A DNA stretch of 23,254 nucleotides from an uncultured Nitrososphaerota archaeon. GTDB lineage: Archaea; Asgardarchaeota; Njordarchaeia; Njordarchaeales; Njordarchaeaceae. Positions 510 to 16,213 of the stretch are shown here, piece after piece; within the stretch, counting starts at the first letter, position 1; every line of letters begins with the position of its first letter. The notes beneath the pieces were generated by a model. The model did not search any database. It worked only from the letters and a program-made list of their open reading frames with translations, and had not been told where the DNA came from. A program made the position numbers and the translations under genes. Location: assembly GCA_964518475.1 (NCBI GenBank), contig CAZFGR010000006.1, positions 1 to 23,254 of the forward strand. Reading direction: 5' to 3'.

Positions 510-837
510 GATAAAACACCACATATATGCGTCTTGATCATTAGCATACATATGCATAATAAAAGGTTTTTTCTTCGTTATTGAGATATACAATCATTAA
601 CAAATATTATCATTTATTATCATATTATCATAAAAAGTAACGGTCTCCTACCATACGTAAGTCCACAATTTGCTCTTATAGAAGATAATCAAAGGGGGTT
701 CAGTTTTCTTAAACTTAGAGAATACTTTTAGTATGAATTGCTCAGTAAGATTAATTTTGTTAACTCGAGTTATAAGAGCGTTTCAAGAAATCCTTTAATT
801 ACTCCCTGGTAAAGTAGTAATGAGGAGGTTTTTTGTC

Positions 838-2805
838 TTGGATCCTTTGAAAGTATATTTGGATAATATAAGAGGTATATTAGAGAGAATTCTCGCTGAG
901 GAAGTAAATAACATCAAACAGGCAGCCTCTATAATTGCTGATGCCATAATTAGTGATCGTTTAATACATGTTTTCGGCACTGGTCATTCAATGATTCTTG
1001 CTGAAGAAATGTTTCTGCGGGCGGGTGGCTTAGTTCCTATCAATGCGTTACTTGATAAAAACTTTTCAATAATGTCGGGTGTGGCTTCAACAATTAATGA
1101 AAGAACACCGGGTCTTGCTAAGAAGCTATTAGCTGAGTATAATCTCCAAGAGGGTGATATTCTTATAATCGCTTCTGTATCCGGTATCAATGCTGTACCA
1201 GTAGAGTTAGCTGTTGAAGCTAGAAAAAGAGGGCTTAAAGTGATTTCTATAACATCTGTTGAGGCATCTAAAAATCTTCAGCCTAGGAATCCACTTAATA
1301 AACGTCTTTTCGAAGTATCCGACGTAACAATTGACAATAAGGTGCCGCTTGGGGATGCTCTCGTAGCTCTACCCGGTTTGAAACAAAAGGTTGCACCAGC
1401 ATCCACCATCGCGGGTGCTTTTATAATCAATTGTATAGTGATAGAGACTGCCCGTTTGCTTCTAGAGAAAGGAGTTGAACCGCCCATCTGGGTAAGCGGC
1501 AACGTTCCTGAGAGTGATGAAATAAACAAGAGGTACATTGATAAGTTGGTAGGGAGAGTAGCTCATCTAGGGATAGAGGCTCTACTACGTGGTATCGGGG
1601 AAAAGAAGGTCGAAGTTCCCGAGAAAGTTGAGGGTGGAGAAGTTTCAAAGCTCATCATTTATGGCGATATCGTTACTCCGTACACCAATATTAGGAATGG
1701 TTTGATTGTTGTAGAGAATGGAAAAATAACTTACGTTGGAGAAGAGGAAAAAAGTCTAGAGAAAAAAGATTATACTGTACTTGATTTCACGGATCACTAT
1801 ATAGTTCCCGGCTTCATAGATATTCACGTCCATGGATGCGAGGGTGCTAATGCGTTTGACGGCTCTCCACAATCCCTTAAGGCTATGGCTTATAATCTGG
1901 CAAAACACGGTGTAACAGCTTTCTTACCGACCGCTGGAACTCTCCCTAAAGATATGTTGATAAAAATAGCTTCAACAGTTAGCGAAGTTATGGCAAGTGA
2001 TTATGTGGGGGCTGAAATTTCTGGACTAAACATTGAGGGGCCTTTTCTTAATCCAGAGAAAAAAGGTGCTATGATTGTTGGATTCATGAGAAAACCTAAC
2101 ATTGAAGAAGCGAGAGAGATTTTAGAAGCGAGTAAAGGATCTCTCAAAATAATGACTATTGCTCCCGAGTTGGAAGGTGCGTTAGAGATTATTAGATGGT
2201 TAGCGTTGCATAATGTAGTCCCATCAATCGGTCACTCGAATGCCTCTTATGAGGAGGCTGTGAATGCTATTAATAACGGGGCTAGACTAGTCACTCATTT
2301 ATTCAATGCCATGAGAAGTTTTCATCATCGAGACCCAGGAGTAATAGGTGCTGCACTTGCCAGAGAAGATGTACTAGTCGAGATTATTGCGGATGGTATA
2401 CATGTTGATCCCTCCGCGGTAAAATTCGTAATCAACGCTAAGGGAGCGGATAGAGTAATAATAGTCTCTGATGCCACTCCCCTCGCTGGACTTCCTGATG
2501 GGGAATATACCTTCCCCGGATTCCCAAAAATAACTGTTAAGAACGGGAAAGCCACGCTTCCAGACGGCACTATCGCTGGTAGCACTTTAACACTTGACGA
2601 AGCTTTAAAGAATCTTATTAAGTGGGGTATCCCACTAACTCACGCTCTGAAAATGCTGTCCACGAATGCTGCTAAGTTACTAGGTCTTAAAAAAGGAGTT
2701 ATTAAAGCGGGTTACGATGCCGATCTAGTAATCCTAGACAAGAACCTCAACGTAGTATCAACAATTGTTAATGGAGAAGTCGTATACGAGAAAAAATTTA
2801 GCTAA
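838..2805 (+). CDS. nagA: Fusion: SIS-domain phosphosugar-binding protein (UPF0309/COG4821-like) + N-acetylglucosamine-6-phosphate deacetylase
   Basis: N-terminal SIS motifs HVFGTGHS..AEE..RAGGL, SVSGINAVPVE, DVTIDN, PIWVSGN. From about nt 1651, NagA motifs PGFIDIHVHG, EGPFL, GHSNA, THLFNAM, IADGIH, VSDA, AGS, GYDADLV. The longest ORF starts at 820, but GAGGAGGT (822-829) favours TTG at 838. Confidence 0.9.
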   Translation: MDPLKVYLDNIRGILERILAEEVNNIKQAASIIADAIISDRLIHVFGTGHSMILAEEMFLRAGGLVPINALLDKNFSIMSGVASTINERTPGLAKKLLAEYNLQEGDILIIASVSGINAVPVELAVEARKRGLKVISITSVEASKNLQPRNPLNKRLFEVSDVTIDNKVPLGDALVALPGLKQKVAPASTIAGAFIINCIVIETARLLLEKGVEPPIWVSGNVPESDEINKRYIDKLVGRVAHLGIEALLRGIGEKKVEVPEKVEGGEVSKLIIYGDIVTPYTNIRNGLIVVENGKITYVGEEEKSLEKKDYTVLDFTDHYIVPGFIDIHVHGCEGANAFDGSPQSLKAMAYNLAKHGVTAFLPTAGTLPKDMLIKIASTVSEVMASDYVGAEISGLNIEGPFLNPEKKGAMIVGFMRKPNIEEAREILEASKGSLKIMTIAPELEGALEIIRWLALHNVVPSIGHSNASYEEAVNAINNGARLVTHLFNAMRSFHHRDPGVIGAALAREDVLVEIIADGIHVDPSAVKFVINAKGADRVIIVSDATPLAGLPDGEYTFPGFPKITVKNGKATLPDGTIAGSTLTLDEALKNLIKWGIPLTHALKMLSTNAAKLLGLKKGVIKAGYDADLVILDKNLNVVSTIVNGEVVYEKKFS

Positions 2806-3280
2806 TCTTTTTCAATAATTCTTCAACTCTAATTTCTTTTGGCTTCATAGAGGCCATTTGTTGGTAAACAATTTTTATCCCAAGATCGCTCAAAGTCTTT
2901 AATGCTTCTATGTCTTCTCGCAAAACGCTGATTGTTTTCTCGATTCTTATTCTTCCCTCTTTATAACCCATTTGCCCGAGAATTATTCTATCAACTTTTA
3001 GTCCCGCTTTTATAAGCTCGAGCGCGTCTCTTGGAGAGGCTACAAGTATTAACGTTTTTTCAGTCGGTTGTTTCTGGCCTAGCTCTTTAATCGCTTCTTC
3101 CAATCTTAGAATCTTGACATTAATTCCGGGGGGAGCAGAGCTTTTCTGGATCATACTAAGAAACTCGTCATTTGCTATTTCATCACTTACCACCCAGATT
3201 TCCCTTATTTTGAATGCTCTAACCCAGCTAACAGTCACTTGACCGTGAATATATCTATCATCTACTCTCAGGATAACCAT
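2798..3280 (-). CDS. PTS mannose/sorbose/fructose family IIB component
   Basis: LRVDDRYIHGQV matches the RxDxRxxHGQV phospho-His motif. 160 aa, GGTGA SD upstream of the ATG. Confidence 0.95.
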   Translation of the reverse strand: MVILRVDDRYIHGQVTVSWVRAFKIREIWVVSDEIANDEFLSMIQKSSAPPGINVKILRLEEAIKELGQKQPTEKTLILVASPRDALELIKAGLKVDRIILGQMGYKEGRIRIEKTISVLREDIEALKTLSDLGIKIVYQQMASMKPKEIRVEELLKKIS

Positions 3281-3308: not shown

Positions 3309-4913
3309 TTAGGAGGAGGGGATTTCTACATAACCTACGGCACCTAGTATGCCTAGGGCTCCAAGTATGAATCCTATTGCGAATAGTACTACTAATACAT
3401 AATAGATCTTGAAACCCTTGCTATACAGATACTCTGCTAGGAGTGTTAAGCCCAGACCTATTAACGCGCTCACGAAGAGCGTTAACGAGAATATTCCTAG
3501 GGACGCATCAATAGTTGCCAGTACTTCAGCTCCCACAACTGGTCTTACTTGGAATACTATAGGAATTATTGCTCCGACGCTGAATATAGCTAATGTCTCA
3601 GCGAACTCTCTTATACTGCGCATTCTTTCTTCGGAGAAAACTTTTACAAGAGACAATCCTCTATTGTAGCCGAAGTCAAAGCTCTTAAACCTTATCGTGA
3701 AAGTGACTATGTCGAATGCTATGATGAAGATTAATGGCGCCCAGACGAGACCCCCGTTAATTAGCGTAATCGCTAGGATTAATAGAACCCCACCCGTAGC
3801 TAACCATATGACGCTATCTCCGAAACCAGCTAGTGGACCCATTAGACCTATCTTCAGTTTTCGTATGAAGTCTAGATCCCCCCTTCTTGTATTCTCTATA
3901 GCACCGTCAAGCCCTACTACCATAGGAGCTAGCACGGGGTTTGTGTTGAAGAACTCTAGGTGCGCTTTAGCTGCGTTTTTTAATTCATCTCCCTTGTATA
4001 TATGTTTCAGAATTGGTAGAATGCTGAAGAGGTATCCCAGACCTTGCATTAGTTCATAATTCCAGGAGGATTCAAAGAAGAGAACTGATCGTAGTTTAGA
4101 GCTTCTAAGAATTTCTTTAGGAAGACCTACTCCTTCGCTACCTTCACCACCTTCTATCTTTAATGCTCCTCTATATTTGTACCAAATGATGATAAAACCA
4201 GCAATTATAACAATGGCGAATGTAAAGGAGATGTTGATGAGGCTGACTAGGAGAAAAGCTATAATAAAGTACCACTTGTATCTACCAAGACCTAGATAGG
4301 TTAAAATGAGACCCAGACCCATGGCTGGTAGTACGGCACCAGCAACCGCTAATCCGTCAAGTACCCACTTAGGCAGAGACTCAAGAAAAGTCTTTAGAGC
4401 CTCCCCACCTAACGCGGTAACAATAAACACTGCTATAGCTACGGCTACCCCTCTGAAAAGCCCCAGTATAGGCATCCCCATTAAATGCCACTTATCGATC
4501 TCATCTATCTCGCCTTCTTCGATTAACTTATCTACCCTATGAACCAAGCTGATATTAACTGTTCTACCAATTATGTCAAAGTACATTCCCAAAATTCCGG
4601 CTGGCAATGCTAACACAATTGCTACCATAGGGTCTAAGCCAGCTATAGAGGAGAGAACCACAGCCGTTATCGCGACCATACCAAAGTCTGGGGGTACTGC
4701 TCCGCCCATTGGAACAGCTCCAAGCGCTATGAGCTGAGTAATTGCACCAATAGTCGCTCCTAATGCTACGTTTCCTAAGAGAATGCCAGCGAAGAAACCC
4801 GATAGTAGTGGTAGGATGCCAATCACTATCTTTGGTCCATACGCATCCATTGTAGCTAGAAACTCATAAATAAAGAAGATTATTGCGAGTACTAACGCCG
4901 TCTGGAGAGACAT
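3309..4913 (-). CDS. PTS mannose-family permease, fused IIC-IID (paralogue 1)
   Basis: IIC motifs GGAVPPD and GAVLPAMG. IID motifs SWNYELMQ, HLEFFNTNP, LMGPLAGFGD. Multiple TM segments. GGAGGT SD favours ATG at 4913 (ORF track starts at 4928). Confidence 0.93.
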   Translation of the reverse strand: MSLQTALVLAIIFFIYEFLATMDAYGPKIVIGILPLLSGFFAGILLGNVALGATIGAITQLIALGAVPMGGAVPPDFGMVAITAVVLSSIAGLDPMVAIVLALPAGILGMYFDIIGRTVNISLVHRVDKLIEEGEIDEIDKWHLMGMPILGLFRGVAVAIAVFIVTALGGEALKTFLESLPKWVLDGLAVAGAVLPAMGLGLILTYLGLGRYKWYFIIAFLLVSLINISFTFAIVIIAGFIIIWYKYRGALKIEGGEGSEGVGLPKEILRSSKLRSVLFFESSWNYELMQGLGYLFSILPILKHIYKGDELKNAAKAHLEFFNTNPVLAPMVVGLDGAIENTRRGDLDFIRKLKIGLMGPLAGFGDSVIWLATGGVLLILAITLINGGLVWAPLIFIIAFDIVTFTIRFKSFDFGYNRGLSLVKVFSEERMRSIREFAETLAIFSVGAIIPIVFQVRPVVGAEVLATIDASLGIFSLTLFVSALIGLGLTLLAEYLYSKGFKIYYVLVVLFAIGFILGALGILGAVGYVEIPSS

Positions 4914-5005
4914 TAGAATAACCTCCAAAAACTTTCAACATATCCCAATTCTTTTAATATTTTTTAAACTTGCTGACGTATATAGTACAGGGGAAAAACT
5001 AAAGG

Positions 5006-5455
5006 GTGACACCCTTGGAAAAAACGGAGAATGCTAGAAAATTCGCTAACAAGAGAAAAATCCCAATACTAATTGTTGGTCATGGAGATTTTGGCCACGC
5101 TCTTTTAAGCGCCGCCGAGATGATGACTGGGCCTAATGAAAACCTAGAGGTAATTAGTCTAGAGCTCGGGGAATCTATAGATTCTCTCTATTCTAAAATA
5201 AAAAATGCTTTGGATAGGTATGGAGGGGGAGCATTAATACTCATTGATGTCTTCGGGGGATCCCCCGCTTATGCTGTTGCGAAGCTTCTTAGGGAATATA
5301 GGGAGGTTGAAGCGATAGCGGGCGCTAACCTCCCAATGCTATTAGAGGCCCTGATTTCACGAGAAGAAGCTGGATCTCCTCATGAACTCGCAGATTTAAT
5401 AAGTAATATTGGGAGGGAAAGTATAATAAATATTCGTAAGAGACTTAGGCTTTAG
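5006..5455 (+). CDS. PTS mannose/sorbose/fructose family IIA component
   Basis: ILIVGHG (phospho-His), DVFGGSP, GANLPMLLE. Alternative start TTG at 5015 after GGTGA. Confidence 0.93.
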   Translation: MTPLEKTENARKFANKRKIPILIVGHGDFGHALLSAAEMMTGPNENLEVISLELGESIDSLYSKIKNALDRYGGGALILIDVFGGSPAYAVAKLLREYREVEAIAGANLPMLLEALISREEAGSPHELADLISNIGRESIINIRKRLRL

Positions 5456-11147: not shown

Positions 11148-12536
11148 TTACCAGCCGTAAATTTCGGGCCCCCAGTCTCTTATCTCTAATTCTTGCTTAG
11201 GAAGAATTAGTTTTCTTGGAGGTACGTCCTTATAAACGATTACTCCTGGACCGACTATGCTATAGGGACCTATCCTAACACCAGGCATTATCATTGAGTT
11301 TACGCCTGTTCTACAATAATCCCCAATATATGCAGCAGAAGCTATTCTGGGCGGGAATTCCCTTCTTTTACGAATCCTCATTCTTGGAGGATTATCATCA
11401 AATCTAAGATTTCCGACAACAGTGCCCGCGGCTATATCTGTGAACCGTCCTATTACCCCATAAATCATTGCGTGATGCATCACAGATACGCCATCCATGA
11501 TTACTCCTTCAACTTCCGCTAGGTGGAGAATTCTCGTACGCTTGCCTATAGATGTCTGAGGCCAGATCTTGCAGTATTCTCCGATCCTAGCGTAATCTCC
11601 AATAACGACGTTTTCCCCAATTATGCAGTGTTCTATATTTGCATTAGCTCCTATAAACGCATTTCCTCTAATAACTGTGTTTGGGCCTATCTTACTGTTT
11701 TTTCCAATAACTATGTGACCATATATCTCTGCCCGCTCCGAAACTTCTGCTTCGGGATCTATTAGATCCTTCTCTAATCGTTCCCCAATATATTTTAGGT
11801 ATTCCTTGTTCGCTTCTAGAATATGCCATGGTTTATCCACATCAACAATAAAGTTGGAGGGTTCTACGGCTAAGATTTCCTCCCCATCATCTATCATCAT
11901 TGCCATGCTTTCTTCTAGGAAGTATTCTTTCGGAGGCATTACCCCCACTGGTATGTGGGACATGAATTCTGGAGTTATTTCGAGGTAGGGGATTATTTTC
12001 TCTGATAAAACATATATCCCCACTAACCTATGAGAAACACTGTGTCTGGGATGAGCAATAATTTGTTCAATTCTCTTCTCTCTAACCCTACAGCAGATCC
12101 AATCGTTGGGTCTTTCACGATTTAGTTTAGTAGCGAGAACAACACATTCTCCCCGTCTCTTTGATGCTTCATTCAAGATTATTTCATAATTCTCCTTCGC
12201 GGAAACAATGTCTCCATATACTACTAACCAACGATCCTCAATATCCTTCCTTACCTCTTCTAAAGCAGTCTTTAATGCATGCGCAGTACCCAGCGGCTTA
12301 TTCTGAATTATGAATTCAACCTCCTCTAGTCCTCTGAGGTCCTTCTTGATCTGGGAATGCTCTGGCGGAACAATCAGATAGATATTATTAATACTAAATT
12401 GCTTAACCGTTTCCACTATATGTCTTATAATTGGCTTATTACCGATAGGAATCGAAGGTTTTGGTAATGTTTCAGTGAAAGGCTTCAGTTTCTCACCAAT
12501 TCCAGCTGCAAGAATAAAAGCAGACTCTATTCTCAA
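11148..12536 (-). CDS. Sugar-1-phosphate nucleotidyltransferase with left-handed beta-helix domain (archaeal GlmU-like, divergent)
   Basis: ILAAGxGxKLxP..PKP, QxxPLGTAHA, YGD, DVDKPWHILEAN, hexapeptide repeats, AGT..GNLRFDD, GVNS.I.PG. GGTGG SD favours TTG at 12536 (ORF track 12566). Confidence 0.85.
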   Translation of the reverse strand: MRIESAFILAAGIGEKLKPFTETLPKPSIPIGNKPIIRHIVETVKQFSINNIYLIVPPEHSQIKKDLRGLEEVEFIIQNKPLGTAHALKTALEEVRKDIEDRWLVVYGDIVSAKENYEIILNEASKRRGECVVLATKLNRERPNDWICCRVREKRIEQIIAHPRHSVSHRLVGIYVLSEKIIPYLEITPEFMSHIPVGVMPPKEYFLEESMAMMIDDGEEILAVEPSNFIVDVDKPWHILEANKEYLKYIGERLEKDLIDPEAEVSERAEIYGHIVIGKNSKIGPNTVIRGNAFIGANANIEHCIIGENVVIGDYARIGEYCKIWPQTSIGKRTRILHLAEVEGVIMDGVSVMHHAMIYGVIGRFTDIAAGTVVGNLRFDDNPPRMRIRKRREFPPRIASAAYIGDYCRTGVNSMIMPGVRIGPYSIVGPGVIVYKDVPPRKLILPKQELEIRDWGPEIYGW

Positions 12537-12588
12537 TCCCAAACCACCGCGAAAATAAATCATCACTTAAAAAGTGTAAAAATAGCTT

Positions 12589-14226
12589 TTAAGTTGATAC
12601 GGCTACTTGACCTATCGTACCCACTAAACCAATGGTACCGAGAATGAATCCTATGGCAAATAGGAGAAGAAATAGCCTCGTTGGTCCATAACCTTTTCCA
12701 TACAGATTCTTCATCAGTAATGTTAGGATAAGCATTATCGATGCTCCGAGGAACTGATTTATAGAGATTATAGCTAGTTTCGCCTCGATTCTTGCGAGGA
12801 ACGTGGCTAGTGGAACAACTCTAATAGCTGTTATAAATGGTATTGTTGCTCCAATGCTCACAATAGATAACCATTCAAAGATCTCTCTCAGGGATTGTAT
12901 TTTCTCACCAGAGAAACTTTCAGTGATCCTCATACCTCTTTTGTAACCAAACTCACTCCCTATTACCCTGAACGGGATGAATATGGCGTCAAATACTATC
13001 AGAATTATCAAAGGGGCGAGCGCGTACAGAGGCCGCTCTAAGGACATAAGAGATAATGTTGACCCCATTATCAGCAAAATCCCGCCAATGACGAAGAATA
13101 TTAGACTATCTCCTATACCCGCAAACGCACCCATAAGTCCTGTTTTTAAACTTCTTACTAGTTCAAAATTTCTAGGAGAACTCTCTTCTATTGCTACGTT
13201 GACACCGACGAGGATAGGAGCCAGAAACGGATTAGTATTAAAGAACTCCAAATGAATCTTAGCGGCTCTTTTCAACAATTCATTATCTCTATATATTCTT
13301 TTTAGAGCTGGGAGGATAGAGAATAAATAACCAAGAGCCTGCATCCTCTCATAATTCCAAGAACATTCAAGGAAGAATCCTGATCTTATAGCAATTTTCC
13401 TTAACAATGATCTGTCCAATCGTCCTTTACCTTCTCCTAGTGAGCTTACAGATCCTTTAGCGTATTTGCGTAGTCGTACCCAAGCAACAACGCTTGCAAT
13501 CACTATCAGAATCGTGAAGACTACTGTGATATCAATTATTACAATAAGAGAGACTATCAAGAAAGGGATCAGGAGAAGATGATATCTCCTCGCTACCCCT
13601 ATGTAGCTAAGAAGAATCCCTAGCCCTAATGCTGGTAGAACAGCTCCTGCCACACTCAAGCTCCTCAAGAACCAGACTGGAAGGGTCTCCAAAACACTCT
13701 TTAGAACATCAATTCCCCACTTTAATACGATATATGCTGAGATACCATATAATGCTCCTCTAAATCCCGCCAACGGTAACAATCCCAAGAAATGTAATCG
13801 ACCAACACTATCTATTTGGCCCATGTCGATTAAGGATTCGGCTTTTCTGATTAGAGAAACATTTATTGTCCTAGCTAATATCTCCAAATACATCATTACT
13901 ATCCCAGCCGGTATGAGAGAGAGCACGACTAACGGTAACATCGATAAGTCTAGTCCCCCATATATGAAGACGGCAGCAGTTATTGCTGCTACAATAGCGA
14001 AATCCGGCGGCACAGCTCCTCCTATCTCTATTAATCCAAGAGACAATAGTTGAATATAGGCACCAATATACGCTCCTAAAGCTATATTGCCCAATAATAA
14101 TCCAACAAAAAAGCCAGTTATCAATGGCATTATCCCTAGTAAACTCTTTATACTATAATTGTCGATCCCTGTAATAATCCCCCAAATCACTAGGATAGCT
14201 ACTACACAAGAGATGCTCATACCCAT
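12589..14226 (-). CDS. PTS mannose-family permease, fused IIC-IID (paralogue 2)
   Basis: GGAVPPD, GAVLPALG, SWNYERMQ, HLEFFNTNP, LMGAFAGIGD. GGAGTG SD before ATG at 14226 (ORF track 14235). Confidence 0.92.
   Translation of the reverse strand: MGMSISCVVAILVIWGIITGIDNYSIKSLLGIMPLITGFFVGLLLGNIALGAYIGAYIQLLSLGLIEIGGAVPPDFAIVAAITAAVFIYGGLDLSMLPLVVLSLIPAGIVMMYLEILARTINVSLIRKAESLIDMGQIDSVGRLHFLGLLPLAGFRGALYGISAYIVLKWGIDVLKSVLETLPVWFLRSLSVAGAVLPALGLGILLSYIGVARRYHLLLIPFLIVSLIVIIDITVVFTILIVIASVVAWVRLRKYAKGSVSSLGEGKGRLDRSLLRKIAIRSGFFLECSWNYERMQALGYLFSILPALKRIYRDNELLKRAAKIHLEFFNTNPFLAPILVGVNVAIEESSPRNFELVRSLKTGLMGAFAGIGDSLIFFVIGGILLIMGSTLSLMSLERPLYALAPLIILIVFDAIFIPFRVIGSEFGYKRGMRITESFSGEKIQSLREIFEWLSIVSIGATIPFITAIRVVPLATFLARIEAKLAIISINQFLGASIMLILTLLMKNLYGKGYGPTRLFLLLFAIGFILGTIGLVGTIGQVAVST
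13183..13365. repeat. 183-bp perfect direct repeat, copy 1 (inside permease paralogue 2)
   Basis: Base-by-base identical to 14958-15140 (offset 1775). The flanking bases differ on both sides. Confidence 0.95.
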
Positions 14227-14384
14227 AATAATCACTCCGGCAACGAAGAGGAATGGTCACAATGATTCGTAATATTTCACAAAAATAAATCTTTCTAGAA
14301 CTTTTGTGATAATTCTTCAGAAATAAGACCCTATCATAAAATTTTGCTCAATTTCTTAGGTAAGGTTTTAGGTGAGAACATATT

Positions 14385-16004
14385 TTAGATAGGTGTAGTT
14401 AATATTCCCAATGCTCCAAGCAAAAAACCTATCAGGAAAATCATTAACAATGAGAACAGGATACCATACCACCCATACAACTTTTTCATGAGTAGTAAAG
14501 CTAATAGGGAGATCACACCGCTGATGAATTTGTTAATAGAGATAATAGTAGAGATAAACTTTATTTCCATGGCCATATGCGAAAGTGAAGAGACCCTAAG
14601 ATGAGATATTACTGGAATCAAAGCCCCCATAGTTAATAATGAGAGTTGCTCAAAAGCATCTTTCAGTTTCTTTATTTTCTCTTTCGCTAAGAAGTCAATA
14701 ATTTTCAGCCCACCTTTATAACCTAGCTCACTCCCTTTAAGTTTGAAGGGAATAAATACACTATCAAAAATGAGAATAACTATTAATGGCACATACGCAT
14801 ACAGAGGATTAACCATGCTTTGAAGAGATAAAACCGAGCCCATCACAAGCAAGATTCCCCCAACAGAGAATATTACTAAGCCATCACCGATGCCCATAAA
14901 TGCTCCCATTAATCCTCTTCTTAGACTCCTTATCAACTCGAAGTTCCCTAAATTCCGCTCTTCTATTGCTACGTTGACACCGACGAGGATAGGAGCCAGA
15001 AACGGATTAGTATTAAAGAACTCCAAATGAATCTTAGCGGCTCTTTTCAACAATTCATTATCTCTATATATTCTTTTTAGAGCTGGGAGGATAGAGAATA
15101 AATAACCAAGAGCCTGCATCCTCTCATAATTCCAAGAACACTGGAGAAGAAAACCTGATCTGAACGTCACCGCTCGCAATATTTTTTTGCCAAGCTTCCC
15201 TAGTTCTTGATCATTATAGATTAGGGATCCTATTTCGAACTCTCCCTTAGCCCACAGCCAAGCAACCCTTACCAGAATCACAATCAGTACCGCCAAAGCT
15301 ATCAACGAATCACTTACGGTTAATAAAGCAGATAGTGTGAAGGATGCGAGGAGAATATGGTATTTCTTTTCATAACTCATGTACGTGAGAAGAATACTGA
15401 ATCCGAGAAGAGGCAATAATTCCCCAACCACTTTTAGTCCCCCAAAGAACCACGTAGGCGCCTCTCTTACCAAGTCACGCAGCGCATTAATACCCCATCT
15501 CAACATTATGTAAGCCCCTATAACATGCAGAAACCCCCGAACACCCGCTAATGGAAGCAGTCCTAAGAAATGCCATTTAGAAATGTCGTCAAGTTTACCC
15601 TTGTCTATAGATTCTTCCGCTTTTTTTATCCACAAGGCATTAAAAGATCTTGCATAAACTTCTAAGTATTTCATTAATACTCCAAGCGGAATGAGAGAGA
15701 GGATAAATACAGGAATTAAATACGGATCTACCCCACCAACTATGATAGAAACAACAATAATCGCAGTTATAATCTCGAAATCTAATGGGACCTTTCCTCC
15801 TATCGGTACTAAACCAAGAGCCATTAATTGAAGATAAGCCCCTACATATGTACCAGTTATAGGATCTCCTAGAAGAATACCGATAAAGAAACCGGATATT
15901 AAAGGCACTACCCCACATAAGACTTGTGCACTATACAGATCCAGAGCTACAACTGTCCCCCATACTCCCAGTATTATCGCGATACATAATGGATCATAAA
16001 TCAT
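14385..16004 (-). CDS. PTS mannose-family permease, fused IIC-IID (paralogue 3, most divergent motifs)
   Basis: GGKVPLD, GELLPLLG, SWNYERMQ, HLEFFNTNP, LMGAFMGIGD. Likely ATG at 16004 after GAGG (ORF track 16043). Confidence 0.9.
   Translation of the reverse strand: MIYDPLCIAIILGVWGTVVALDLYSAQVLCGVVPLISGFFIGILLGDPITGTYVGAYLQLMALGLVPIGGKVPLDFEIITAIIVVSIIVGGVDPYLIPVFILSLIPLGVLMKYLEVYARSFNALWIKKAEESIDKGKLDDISKWHFLGLLPLAGVRGFLHVIGAYIMLRWGINALRDLVREAPTWFFGGLKVVGELLPLLGFSILLTYMSYEKKYHILLASFTLSALLTVSDSLIALAVLIVILVRVAWLWAKGEFEIGSLIYNDQELGKLGKKILRAVTFRSGFLLQCSWNYERMQALGYLFSILPALKRIYRDNELLKRAAKIHLEFFNTNPFLAPILVGVNVAIEERNLGNFELIRSLRRGLMGAFMGIGDGLVIFSVGGILLVMGSVLSLQSMVNPLYAYVPLIVILIFDSVFIPFKLKGSELGYKGGLKIIDFLAKEKIKKLKDAFEQLSLLTMGALIPVISHLRVSSLSHMAMEIKFISTIISINKFISGVISLLALLLMKKLYGWYGILFSLLMIFLIGFLLGALGILTTPI
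14958..15140. repeat. 183-bp perfect direct repeat, copy 2 (inside permease paralogue 3)
   Basis: Identical to 13183-13365. Encodes CSWNYERMQ...VNVAIEE. Confidence 0.95.
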
Positions 16005-16213
16005 AAAATCTGGCCTCTTAGGGAAATAACTACCGGATGGCAAGGCGCTTTAAAGACTAATTATCAAGTCGGTGATAATATTGTTATTAAATAGTTTCCC
16101 GAATAACATCTATAGGAGATCAATAGTTCTCAATATAATGGAGCTCACAATATATAGGAGAATATAGAATAGCTAGATGCATCACCTTAAACCAAAAAGC
16201 ACTAAAGCATATC

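Follow-up and report, generated by a model that had tools for sequence, protein, structure and literature searches.

A UPF0309-type SIS domain fused to NagA in Njordarchaeia: a probable bifunctional enzyme of N-acetyl-amino-sugar phosphate metabolism

We have analysed a gene in a 23,254-nucleotide stretch of archaeal DNA (the window in what follows; contig CAZFGR010000006.1 of assembly GCA_964518475.1, order Njordarchaeales), in which a single open reading frame (ORF) joins an SIS domain of the UPF0309 family to NagA, the enzyme that deacetylates N-acetylglucosamine 6-phosphate. Judged from its sequence and its relatives, the product of the gene is most likely a bifunctional enzyme that works in the metabolism of N-acetyl-amino-sugar phosphates. 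Our favoured reading, to which we attach a probability of a little under 0.6, is that the SIS domain acts on an N-acetylated sugar 6-phosphate delivered by the phosphotransferase system (PTS), opening the ring and removing the proton at C2, and that the NagA domain acts on the resulting product, on N-acetylglucosamine 6-phosphate (GlcNAc-6-P), or on both. Thirteen protein clusters from JGI, ENA, NCBI and Logan assemblies, 49–73% identical, share this architecture, and two of these clusters are named Candidatus Njordarchaeia.

The ORF listing of the window gives one uninterrupted frame with ATG as its first codon (Table 1). Residues 11–250 match NF002805, the model of the UPF0309 or PRK02947 type, with 287.8 bits against a cut-off of 135 and over model positions 5–246 of 247; within them, residues 13–146 match Pfam SIS_2 (2.8e-45), and the region is a single SIS_2 domain with a C-terminal extension. 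Residues 278–652 match the TIGR00221 nagA model with 350.6 bits, against an equivalog cut-off of 225.65 and over positions 6–379 of 380, and Pfam Amidohydro_1 is matched at residues 327–655. An earlier note on this DNA had described a UPF0309-type SIS domain joined to a complete NagA in one open frame, and the listing and the two full-length model matches confirm this. The motifs that it quoted from the translation (GTGHS, RAGGL and GLNIEGP) and from the linker (given below) are all present as quoted. It had placed the start of the gene at position 838. There is indeed an in-frame TTG there, 9 nt downstream of an AGGAGG (823–828), and because of this ribosome-binding-like sequence the start is ambiguous; the ATG at 820 is also possible.

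By sequence, the SIS domain has only two solved relatives. One is 3cvj (4e-40), a Bacillus halodurans protein annotated as a putative phosphoheptose isomerase. The other is 9eol (2e-39), which with 9f7o and 9f7v was deposited as ‘UPF0309 protein SCO4393’. SCO4393 is NagS, the GlcNAc-6-P dehydratase of Streptomyces coelicolor described in PLoS Biology in 2025 (PMC12680351), and this overtakes the statement of the earlier note that UPF0309/COG4821 is without a firm function. The substrates of NagS are GlcNAc-6-P and, at a slower rate, N-acetylmannosamine 6-phosphate (ManNAc-6-P), which the enzyme dehydrates to 6P-chromogen I for NagA to deacetylate; it binds both of these substrates and none of glucose 6-phosphate, fructose 6-phosphate (Fru-6-P), glucosamine 6-phosphate (GlcN-6-P) or N-acetylgalactosamine 6-phosphate (PMC12680351). 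The enzyme is a dimer with its active site at the interface; four residues, H53, R64, E94 and D179, are essential to it, S91 and N228 also matter, and S54, S119 and S121 hold the phosphate (PMC12680351). In an alignment with NagS the equivalent residues of our SIS domain are H56, S57, R67, T91, E94, S119, S121, D179 and N228. Eight of these nine are invariant in the 13 fused proteins, the exception being position 91, which is T, S or G, and the four that are essential in NagS are nearly universal among about 225 members of the UPF0309 family. The predicted catalytic machinery of the SIS domain is retained.

The domain is related to NagS without being its orthologue. Its identity to NagS, about 35%, compares with at least 58.7% for orthologues, and it has an archaeal host and PTS neighbours in place of a Streptomycetaceae host and a divergent dmdR1 gene; according to the authors, true NagS is limited to the Streptomycetaceae (PMC12680351). 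In their tree of SIS proteins NagS lies beside MurQ (PMC12680351). The MurQ models (TIGR00274 and NF003915) gave no match to residues 1–260 at E ≤ 0.01. The models of the SIS-type deaminases GlmD (NF041128), NagB-II (NF046059) and AgaS (TIGR02815) did not match the SIS domain either, and PF01380 reached 19.3 bits, below its cut-off.

The NagA domain aligns with Bacillus subtilis NagA (2vhl, 1e-71) such that the ligands of the two coincide. The metal and catalytic residues H336, H338, E406, H472, H493 and D551 do not vary among the 13 fused proteins, nor do the phosphate-site residues H502, H503, R504 and H528, aligned to 2vhl. The earlier note had drawn attention to the reading GLNIEGP where GxHxEGP is usual. 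The Asn of GxNxEGP is present and is invariant in the fused clade. It is not significant alone, being shared by 13 of 107 stand-alone relatives, and with the metal ligands intact we reject it as the mark of an unusual or dead NagA. Three motifs are found in the fused clade only: HGCEGAN; KKGAMIVGFM, in which Met/Leu replaces Gln/His and the hydrophobic IVGFM follows; and SDATPLAG. The unfused NagAs that adjoin SIS genes, and the second NagA of the same genome, have the canonical motifs, which argues that the pocket of the fused NagA was altered after, or together with, the fusion.

Gene contexts were compared across the UPF0309 family using a scan in which one genome stood for each prokaryote species; at least 584 of these genomes hold a UPF0309 gene. 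The search for loci was built on a 12-sequence alignment; 80 loci from the scan were analysed together with others retrieved earlier, and the counts that follow are over 93 loci. The SIS gene stands beside a BadF/G-type sugar kinase in 35 of them, a ceramidase-like amidase (PF04734-related, about 440 aa) in 23, NagA in 20 (plus 10 where the two are fused) and an ABC permease in 19. Galactitol-type and mannose-type PTS permeases adjoin it in nine loci each; a double-SIS protein, a GH84 N-acetylglucosaminidase and an M20 peptidase in eight each; and a NagB-like protein and a GntR/UTRA regulator in seven each. Not one of the 93 loci has a BadF/G kinase and a PTS permease together (35 have the kinase, 18 the PTS). 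Since the two are mutually exclusive, the SIS enzyme would be expected to follow primary phosphorylation of the sugar, like MurQ, which acts after MurK or MurP.

The SIS family recurs with a deacylase as its partner, and this deacylase has either of two folds that are unrelated, that of NagA or that of the ceramidase-like amidase. The latter adjoins the fused gene itself in four contexts among the relatives. It is also found in a 667-residue protein of the actinobacterium Nonomuraea phyllanthi (P0241), where a ceramidase-like amidase (aa 14–413) precedes in one chain a UPF0309 SIS domain (aa 431–662) that keeps all of the NagS catalytic residues; the amidase domain is 24% identical to the ceramidase-like neighbour of the archaeal fusion gene. 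On this domain assignment, P0241 is a second, independent Rosetta stone linking the SIS family to a deacylase.

In 12 of the 20 loci with an unfused NagA a candidate deaminase is also present, either NagB-like (7) or a double-SIS protein resembling the isomerase half of GlmS (5). One operon reads nagE (a GlcNAc-type IIBC)–SIS–IIA–nagB–nagA, with a NagB that scores 294.7 bits against an equivalog cut-off of 236.9, and in operons of Thermococcus and Thermotogaceae the order is GlmS-isomerase-like protein–SIS–NagA. Separate deaminase candidates in these loci, together with the failure of NagS to bind GlcN-6-P, suggest that the SIS domain most likely acts on an N-acetylated sugar phosphate, before or beside NagA. 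In two Bacillota loci (L034:6609–7886 and L073:8750–10027) a homologue of the LarA-like nickel-pincer 2-hydroxyacid racemases, below all cut-offs, lies between the SIS gene and nagA, a position that would suit the release of a hydroxy acid.

In the mechanism that we propose, the neighbouring mannose-type PTS would import and 6-phosphorylate an N-acetylhexosamine, using the IIA, IIB and IIC–IID components encoded in the window and the enzyme I (EI) and HPr that are present elsewhere in the genome. The SIS domain, probably a dimer with an interface active site as in NagS, would bind the N-acetylated sugar 6-phosphate, open its ring and take the C2 proton in chemistry of the NagS/MurQ type. Three outcomes can be envisaged: the sugar phosphate might lose water and become 2,3-unsaturated, as with NagS; a 3-O-substituted sugar might undergo elimination followed by rehydration, as with MurQ; or C2 might be epimerised. 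The NagA domain, of the binuclear type, would then deacetylate the SIS product and/or GlcNAc-6-P. Deamination would not be carried out by the SIS domain, and GlcN-6-P would pass to another enzyme or into salvage to UDP-sugars. What the analysis shows is the identity of the domains, the keeping of the catalytic residues, how the fusion arose and the contexts of the genes; the substrate, the sequence in which the two domains act and the choice among the three outcomes are inferred. A further possibility, NagB-independent deamination, seems to us distinctly improbable: dehydration by the SIS domain and deacetylation by NagA to an enamine, followed by hydrolysis, would give a 3-deoxy-2-keto sugar phosphate and ammonia. 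If true, it would account for the lack of NagB as well as for the changed pocket of NagA, and would be a productive catabolic use of chemistry that in Streptomyces is a toxicity pathway.

Several observations weigh against the favoured reading. The NagS-type residues are family-wide, and on alignment they are no pointer to the substrate. The identity to NagS counted on the alignment is low, and the homologues from Clostridium, Paenibacillus and Acidothermus, about 26–36% identical to NagS and so at about the identity of the fusion, do not dehydrate GlcNAc-6-P (PMC12680351). The activity of the archaeal members is deduced from their sequences, and in view of the clade-specific changes in the pocket GlcNAc-6-P is a putative substrate of the predicted NagA activity. 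No deaminase gene is nearby in eight of the 20 unfused NagA-linked loci or in any of the fused loci, and NagB-I was not found in our genome (91% complete) or in two relatives, that is, in three genomes of the genus. A deaminase role for the SIS domain would fill this hole in the pathway neatly.

The strongest alternative is the one that the earlier note had proposed: NagA would be the first to act, the SIS domain would be a hexosamine-6-phosphate deaminase/isomerase of a new, single-SIS kind, and the fusion, as a deacetylase–deaminase, would replace NagA and NagB. We consider it unlikely. Besides the absence of NagB-I from the three genomes and of a deaminase gene from the fused loci, it is favoured by the clusters of kinase, ceramidase-like amidase and SIS gene, which would form a complete three-step route for GlcNAc if the SIS protein were a deaminase. 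Aldose–ketose deamination as carried out by GlmS and NagB-II begins with ring opening and abstraction of the C2 proton, and the chemistry supposed above would equally start such a reaction. The distant homologues of NagS were assayed as dehydratases only (PMC12680351). Against it, NagS binds neither GlcN-6-P nor Fru-6-P, the SIS and NagA genes are accompanied by NagB-like or double-SIS genes in 12 of 20 loci (with one NagB above its cut-off), and the GlmD, NagB-II and AgaS models are unmatched. The argument of the earlier note from the lack of a deaminase gene in the window carries little weight, as the genome has other candidates: besides one strong GlmS it encodes a double-SIS protein of 346 aa, which lies below every deaminase cut-off, and a second GlmS-like protein in which the N-terminal Cys is missing. 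Moreover, a GlmU-like gene lies nearby in the window, through which GlcN-6-P could be salvaged into UDP-sugars with no deaminase needed. As a basis for annotation, the route from ‘missing NagB’ to ‘SIS is the deaminase’ is attractive but probably wrong.

The earlier note had offered as a second possibility that the SIS domain is an allosteric sensor of sugar phosphates; it would then regulate the fused NagA and not be catalytic. SIS domains are known as ligand sensors in the RpiR/MurR regulators and in GKRP. The MurR/RpiR models match the SIS domain weakly, and NagS is inhibited by 6-phosphogluconate (PMC12680351). Against a sensor role, which is therefore very unlikely, stands the invariance of the catalytic residues throughout the fused clade, those essential in NagS being conserved in almost the whole family. 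The unfused ancestors, moreover, would have been free-standing, enzyme-sized proteins of catabolic operons. The ratio of nonsynonymous to synonymous substitution rates (dN/dS) is about 0.06–0.16 in both domains for moderately diverged pairs, in the SIS domain as low as expected of an enzyme, and both domains are under purifying selection.

The chance that an assembly chimera or a sequencing frameshift has merged two separate genes is negligible: one indel could merge the split SIS–nagA pairs described below, which have short gaps of 10–20 nt, but the frame is continuous in the 13 clusters of independent projects and in six species genomes, the 25-residue linker has diverged in sequence yet stays in frame, and genomes with the fusion also hold separate canonical SIS and NagA genes. 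The Rosetta-stone fusion claimed in the earlier note is thus genuine and ties the UPF0309 SIS family to NagA in function, the split gene pairs at other loci adding to the 13 clusters. Of the 14 species genomes that represent the class, those with the fusion are six of the seven from one genus and none from the other three genera, and the fusion is confined to this one genus-level archaeal lineage and to related metagenome-assembled genomes.

AlphaFold2 folds the two domains confidently and gives residues 250–274 a predicted local confidence (pLDDT) below 50; the model points to a flexible linker of 25 residues between the domains. The predicted TM-score (pTM) of 0.60 leaves the inter-domain arrangement without confidence and gives no basis for substrate channelling. 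The linker, GEKKVEVPEKVEGGEVSK at nt about 1597–1650, diverges in sequence among homologues with the frame preserved throughout, and its DNA contains the Shine–Dalgarno (SD)-like GAGGGTGGAG, which the earlier note took as a possible relic of a separate gene start. The motif is there. Of seven other homologues that were compared, four lack such a motif in the linker and three have one elsewhere; at the border between the domains most homologues are without an in-frame start codon, and the linker of P0001 has no in-frame ATG, GTG or TTG. We therefore reject a relic ribosome-binding site. Linkers rich in K and E are purine-rich by composition.

The origin of the fusion can be traced to gene pairs of the same order. 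An SIS gene is followed directly by nagA on the same strand in nine loci (Table 1), and the reverse order, nagA and then SIS, was seen once (L026). In a tree of SIS domains, built without NagS itself, the fused clade is monophyletic with a support of 0.997. Its sister group (0.935) consists of the nagA-adjacent SIS genes of Thermococcus sp. EP1, Thermotogaceae, Desulfurococcales and Acetothermia, and the SIS genes that stand beside BadF/G kinases lie elsewhere on the tree. The nesting of the fused clade among SIS genes directly upstream of nagA argues that the fused gene arose from an operon pair, a UPF0309 SIS gene with a downstream nagA. In one Njordarchaeota genome (G001, with loci L012 and L028) the fused gene coexists with an SIS–nagA pair of separate genes, whose orthologues in our genome are the SIS gene on contig C2 and the NagA on contig C4, and not the fused gene.

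Both domain families and the coupling of NagS with NagA (published in 2025) are already known. In the literature on UPF0309, COG4821 and SCO4393 and on amino-sugar metabolism in Njordarchaeia, only the NagS paper and its preprint were found, and neither mentions the fusion or an archaeal module. The fusion resembles NagS in family (2e-39), in the nine residues kept and in its functional pairing with NagA. It differs in lying outside the NagS clade of the Streptomycetaceae at about 35% identity, in lacking synteny with dmdR1, and in being an archaeal gene that is covalently joined to NagA and adjoins a PTS. The route for N-acetylmuramic acid (MurNAc) in E. coli and Gram-positive bacteria, MurP or MurK, MurQ and NagA (PMC5061867), is similar in plan: a PTS or a BadF/G-type kinase, then an SIS enzyme that deprotonates C2 and eliminates at C3, then NagA. 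MurQ, however, is of a different SIS subfamily, and MurNAc as the cargo has no support here. The deaminases GlmD, NagB-II and AgaS share the SIS fold and the pathway, and adjoin NagA or AgaA, but where the fusion has a single SIS_2 domain they have a pair of PF01380 SIS domains, akin to the isomerase half of GlmS. With B. subtilis NagA (2vhl) and the other binuclear NagAs, the fused NagA shares the aligned HxH, Glu, His, His and Asp and the phosphate site; HGCEGAN, IVGFM and SDATPLAG, along with Asn for His before the bridging Glu, set the fused clade apart.

Earlier described only in Streptomyces, the association between this SIS family and an N-deacylase is shown to be old, and to be spread widely among archaea and among bacteria of thermophilic and gut types, by the fusion, by nine SIS–nagA pairs (with one reversed) and by the independent ceramidase-like fusion. 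The UPF0309 homologues stand at the first step after sugar phosphorylation. The NagS paper leaves many distant homologues without a role, and the fusion offers a direct experimental handle on them in one, probably thermostable, polypeptide.

Table 1 Features of the window and loci in which an SIS gene directly precedes nagA
Feature	Position or locus	Strand	Evidence or source
Fused SIS–NagA gene	820..2805	+	661 aa; ORF listing; stop TAA 2803–2805; alternative TTG start 838
UPF0309/NagS-family single SIS domain	850..1569	+	aa 11–250; NF002805, SIS_2 and PDB matches
Flexible K/E-rich linker (predicted)	1567..1647	+	aa about 250–276; pLDDT <50 at 250–274; holds SD-like GAGGGTGGAG at 1630–1639
NagA domain	1648..2802	+	aa 277–661; TIGR00221, alignment to 2vhl
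Mannose-family PTS IIB gene	2798..3280	-	PTSIIB_sorb 1.8e-42; TIGR00854 124.8 bits, below cut-off
Fused PTS IIC–IID permease	3309..4928	-	EII-Sor + EIID-AGA
Mannose-family PTS IIA gene	5006..5455	+	EIIA-man 1.6e-22
Archaeal GlmU-like sugar-1-phosphate nucleotidylyltransferase/acetyltransferase	11148..12566	-	TIGR03992 232 bits, below cut-off
Two more fused IIC–IID permease paralogues	12589–14235, 14385–16043	-	within 12589..16043
SIS–nagA pair	L022		Thermococcus sp. EP1
SIS–nagA pair	L028		Njordarchaeota genome that has the fusion too
SIS–nagA pairs	L064, L087		Desulfurococcales
SIS–nagA pair	L069		Bathyarchaeota
SIS–nagA pair	L061		Thermotogaceae
SIS–nagA pairs	L047, L071, L076		Acetothermia

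The IIB gene is convergent with the fused gene and their 3′ ends overlap by 8 nt (2798–2805). An IIC–IID permease gene adjoins the fusion gene in the window and in loci L011, L012, L015, L016 and L017, and is two genes away in L013 and L014, in varying orientations; a GlmU-like gene adjoins the unit of permease and fusion gene in L015 and L016. The IIA, IIB and IIC–IID proteins all score below every subfamily cut-off, and the models for mannose, N-acetylgalactosamine and galactosamine score alike. We therefore reject an assignment of the PTS cargo from subfamily models. A fourth IIC–IID permease of the genome is found on contig C4 (61162–63114), and only one IIA and one IIB gene are seen in the window.

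The genome to which the window belongs is 2.33 Mb in 121 contigs, is 91% complete and has 38% G+C. At this completeness no BadF/G kinase was found in it. The second GlmS-like gene (contig C11, 58795–60639, minus strand), like one at L087 (2500–4335), scores above the GlmS cut-off and has Gly where the catalytic Cys should stand at the N-terminus, and such proteins may not use glutamine. As a candidate for a deaminase linked to the fusion this paralogue is uninformative, since most of the genomes in the class have two GlmS paralogues, whether they carry the fusion or not. On contig C4 (25440–28056) a canonical stand-alone NagA gene lies directly upstream of a ceramidase-like gene, which is 52% identical to the copy beside the fusion in L015 and is followed by a short ORF that by eye is cytidine deaminase-like.

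There are three more, free-standing UPF0309 paralogues in the genome, four family members in total, all three on the minus strand: on contigs C2 (3826–4593), C78 (3165–3986) and C1 (26632–27348). The C2 copy adjoins HPr, and the C1 copy is without several of the NagS-type residues. Tandem UPF0309 genes occur in L036, L038, L046 (where the gene is triplicated), L051, L072, L097 and other loci of Chloroflexota, Spirochaetota and Armatimonadota. The tandem copies split into two distinct paralogue clades, and their arrangement suggests that the paralogues may form hetero-dimers.

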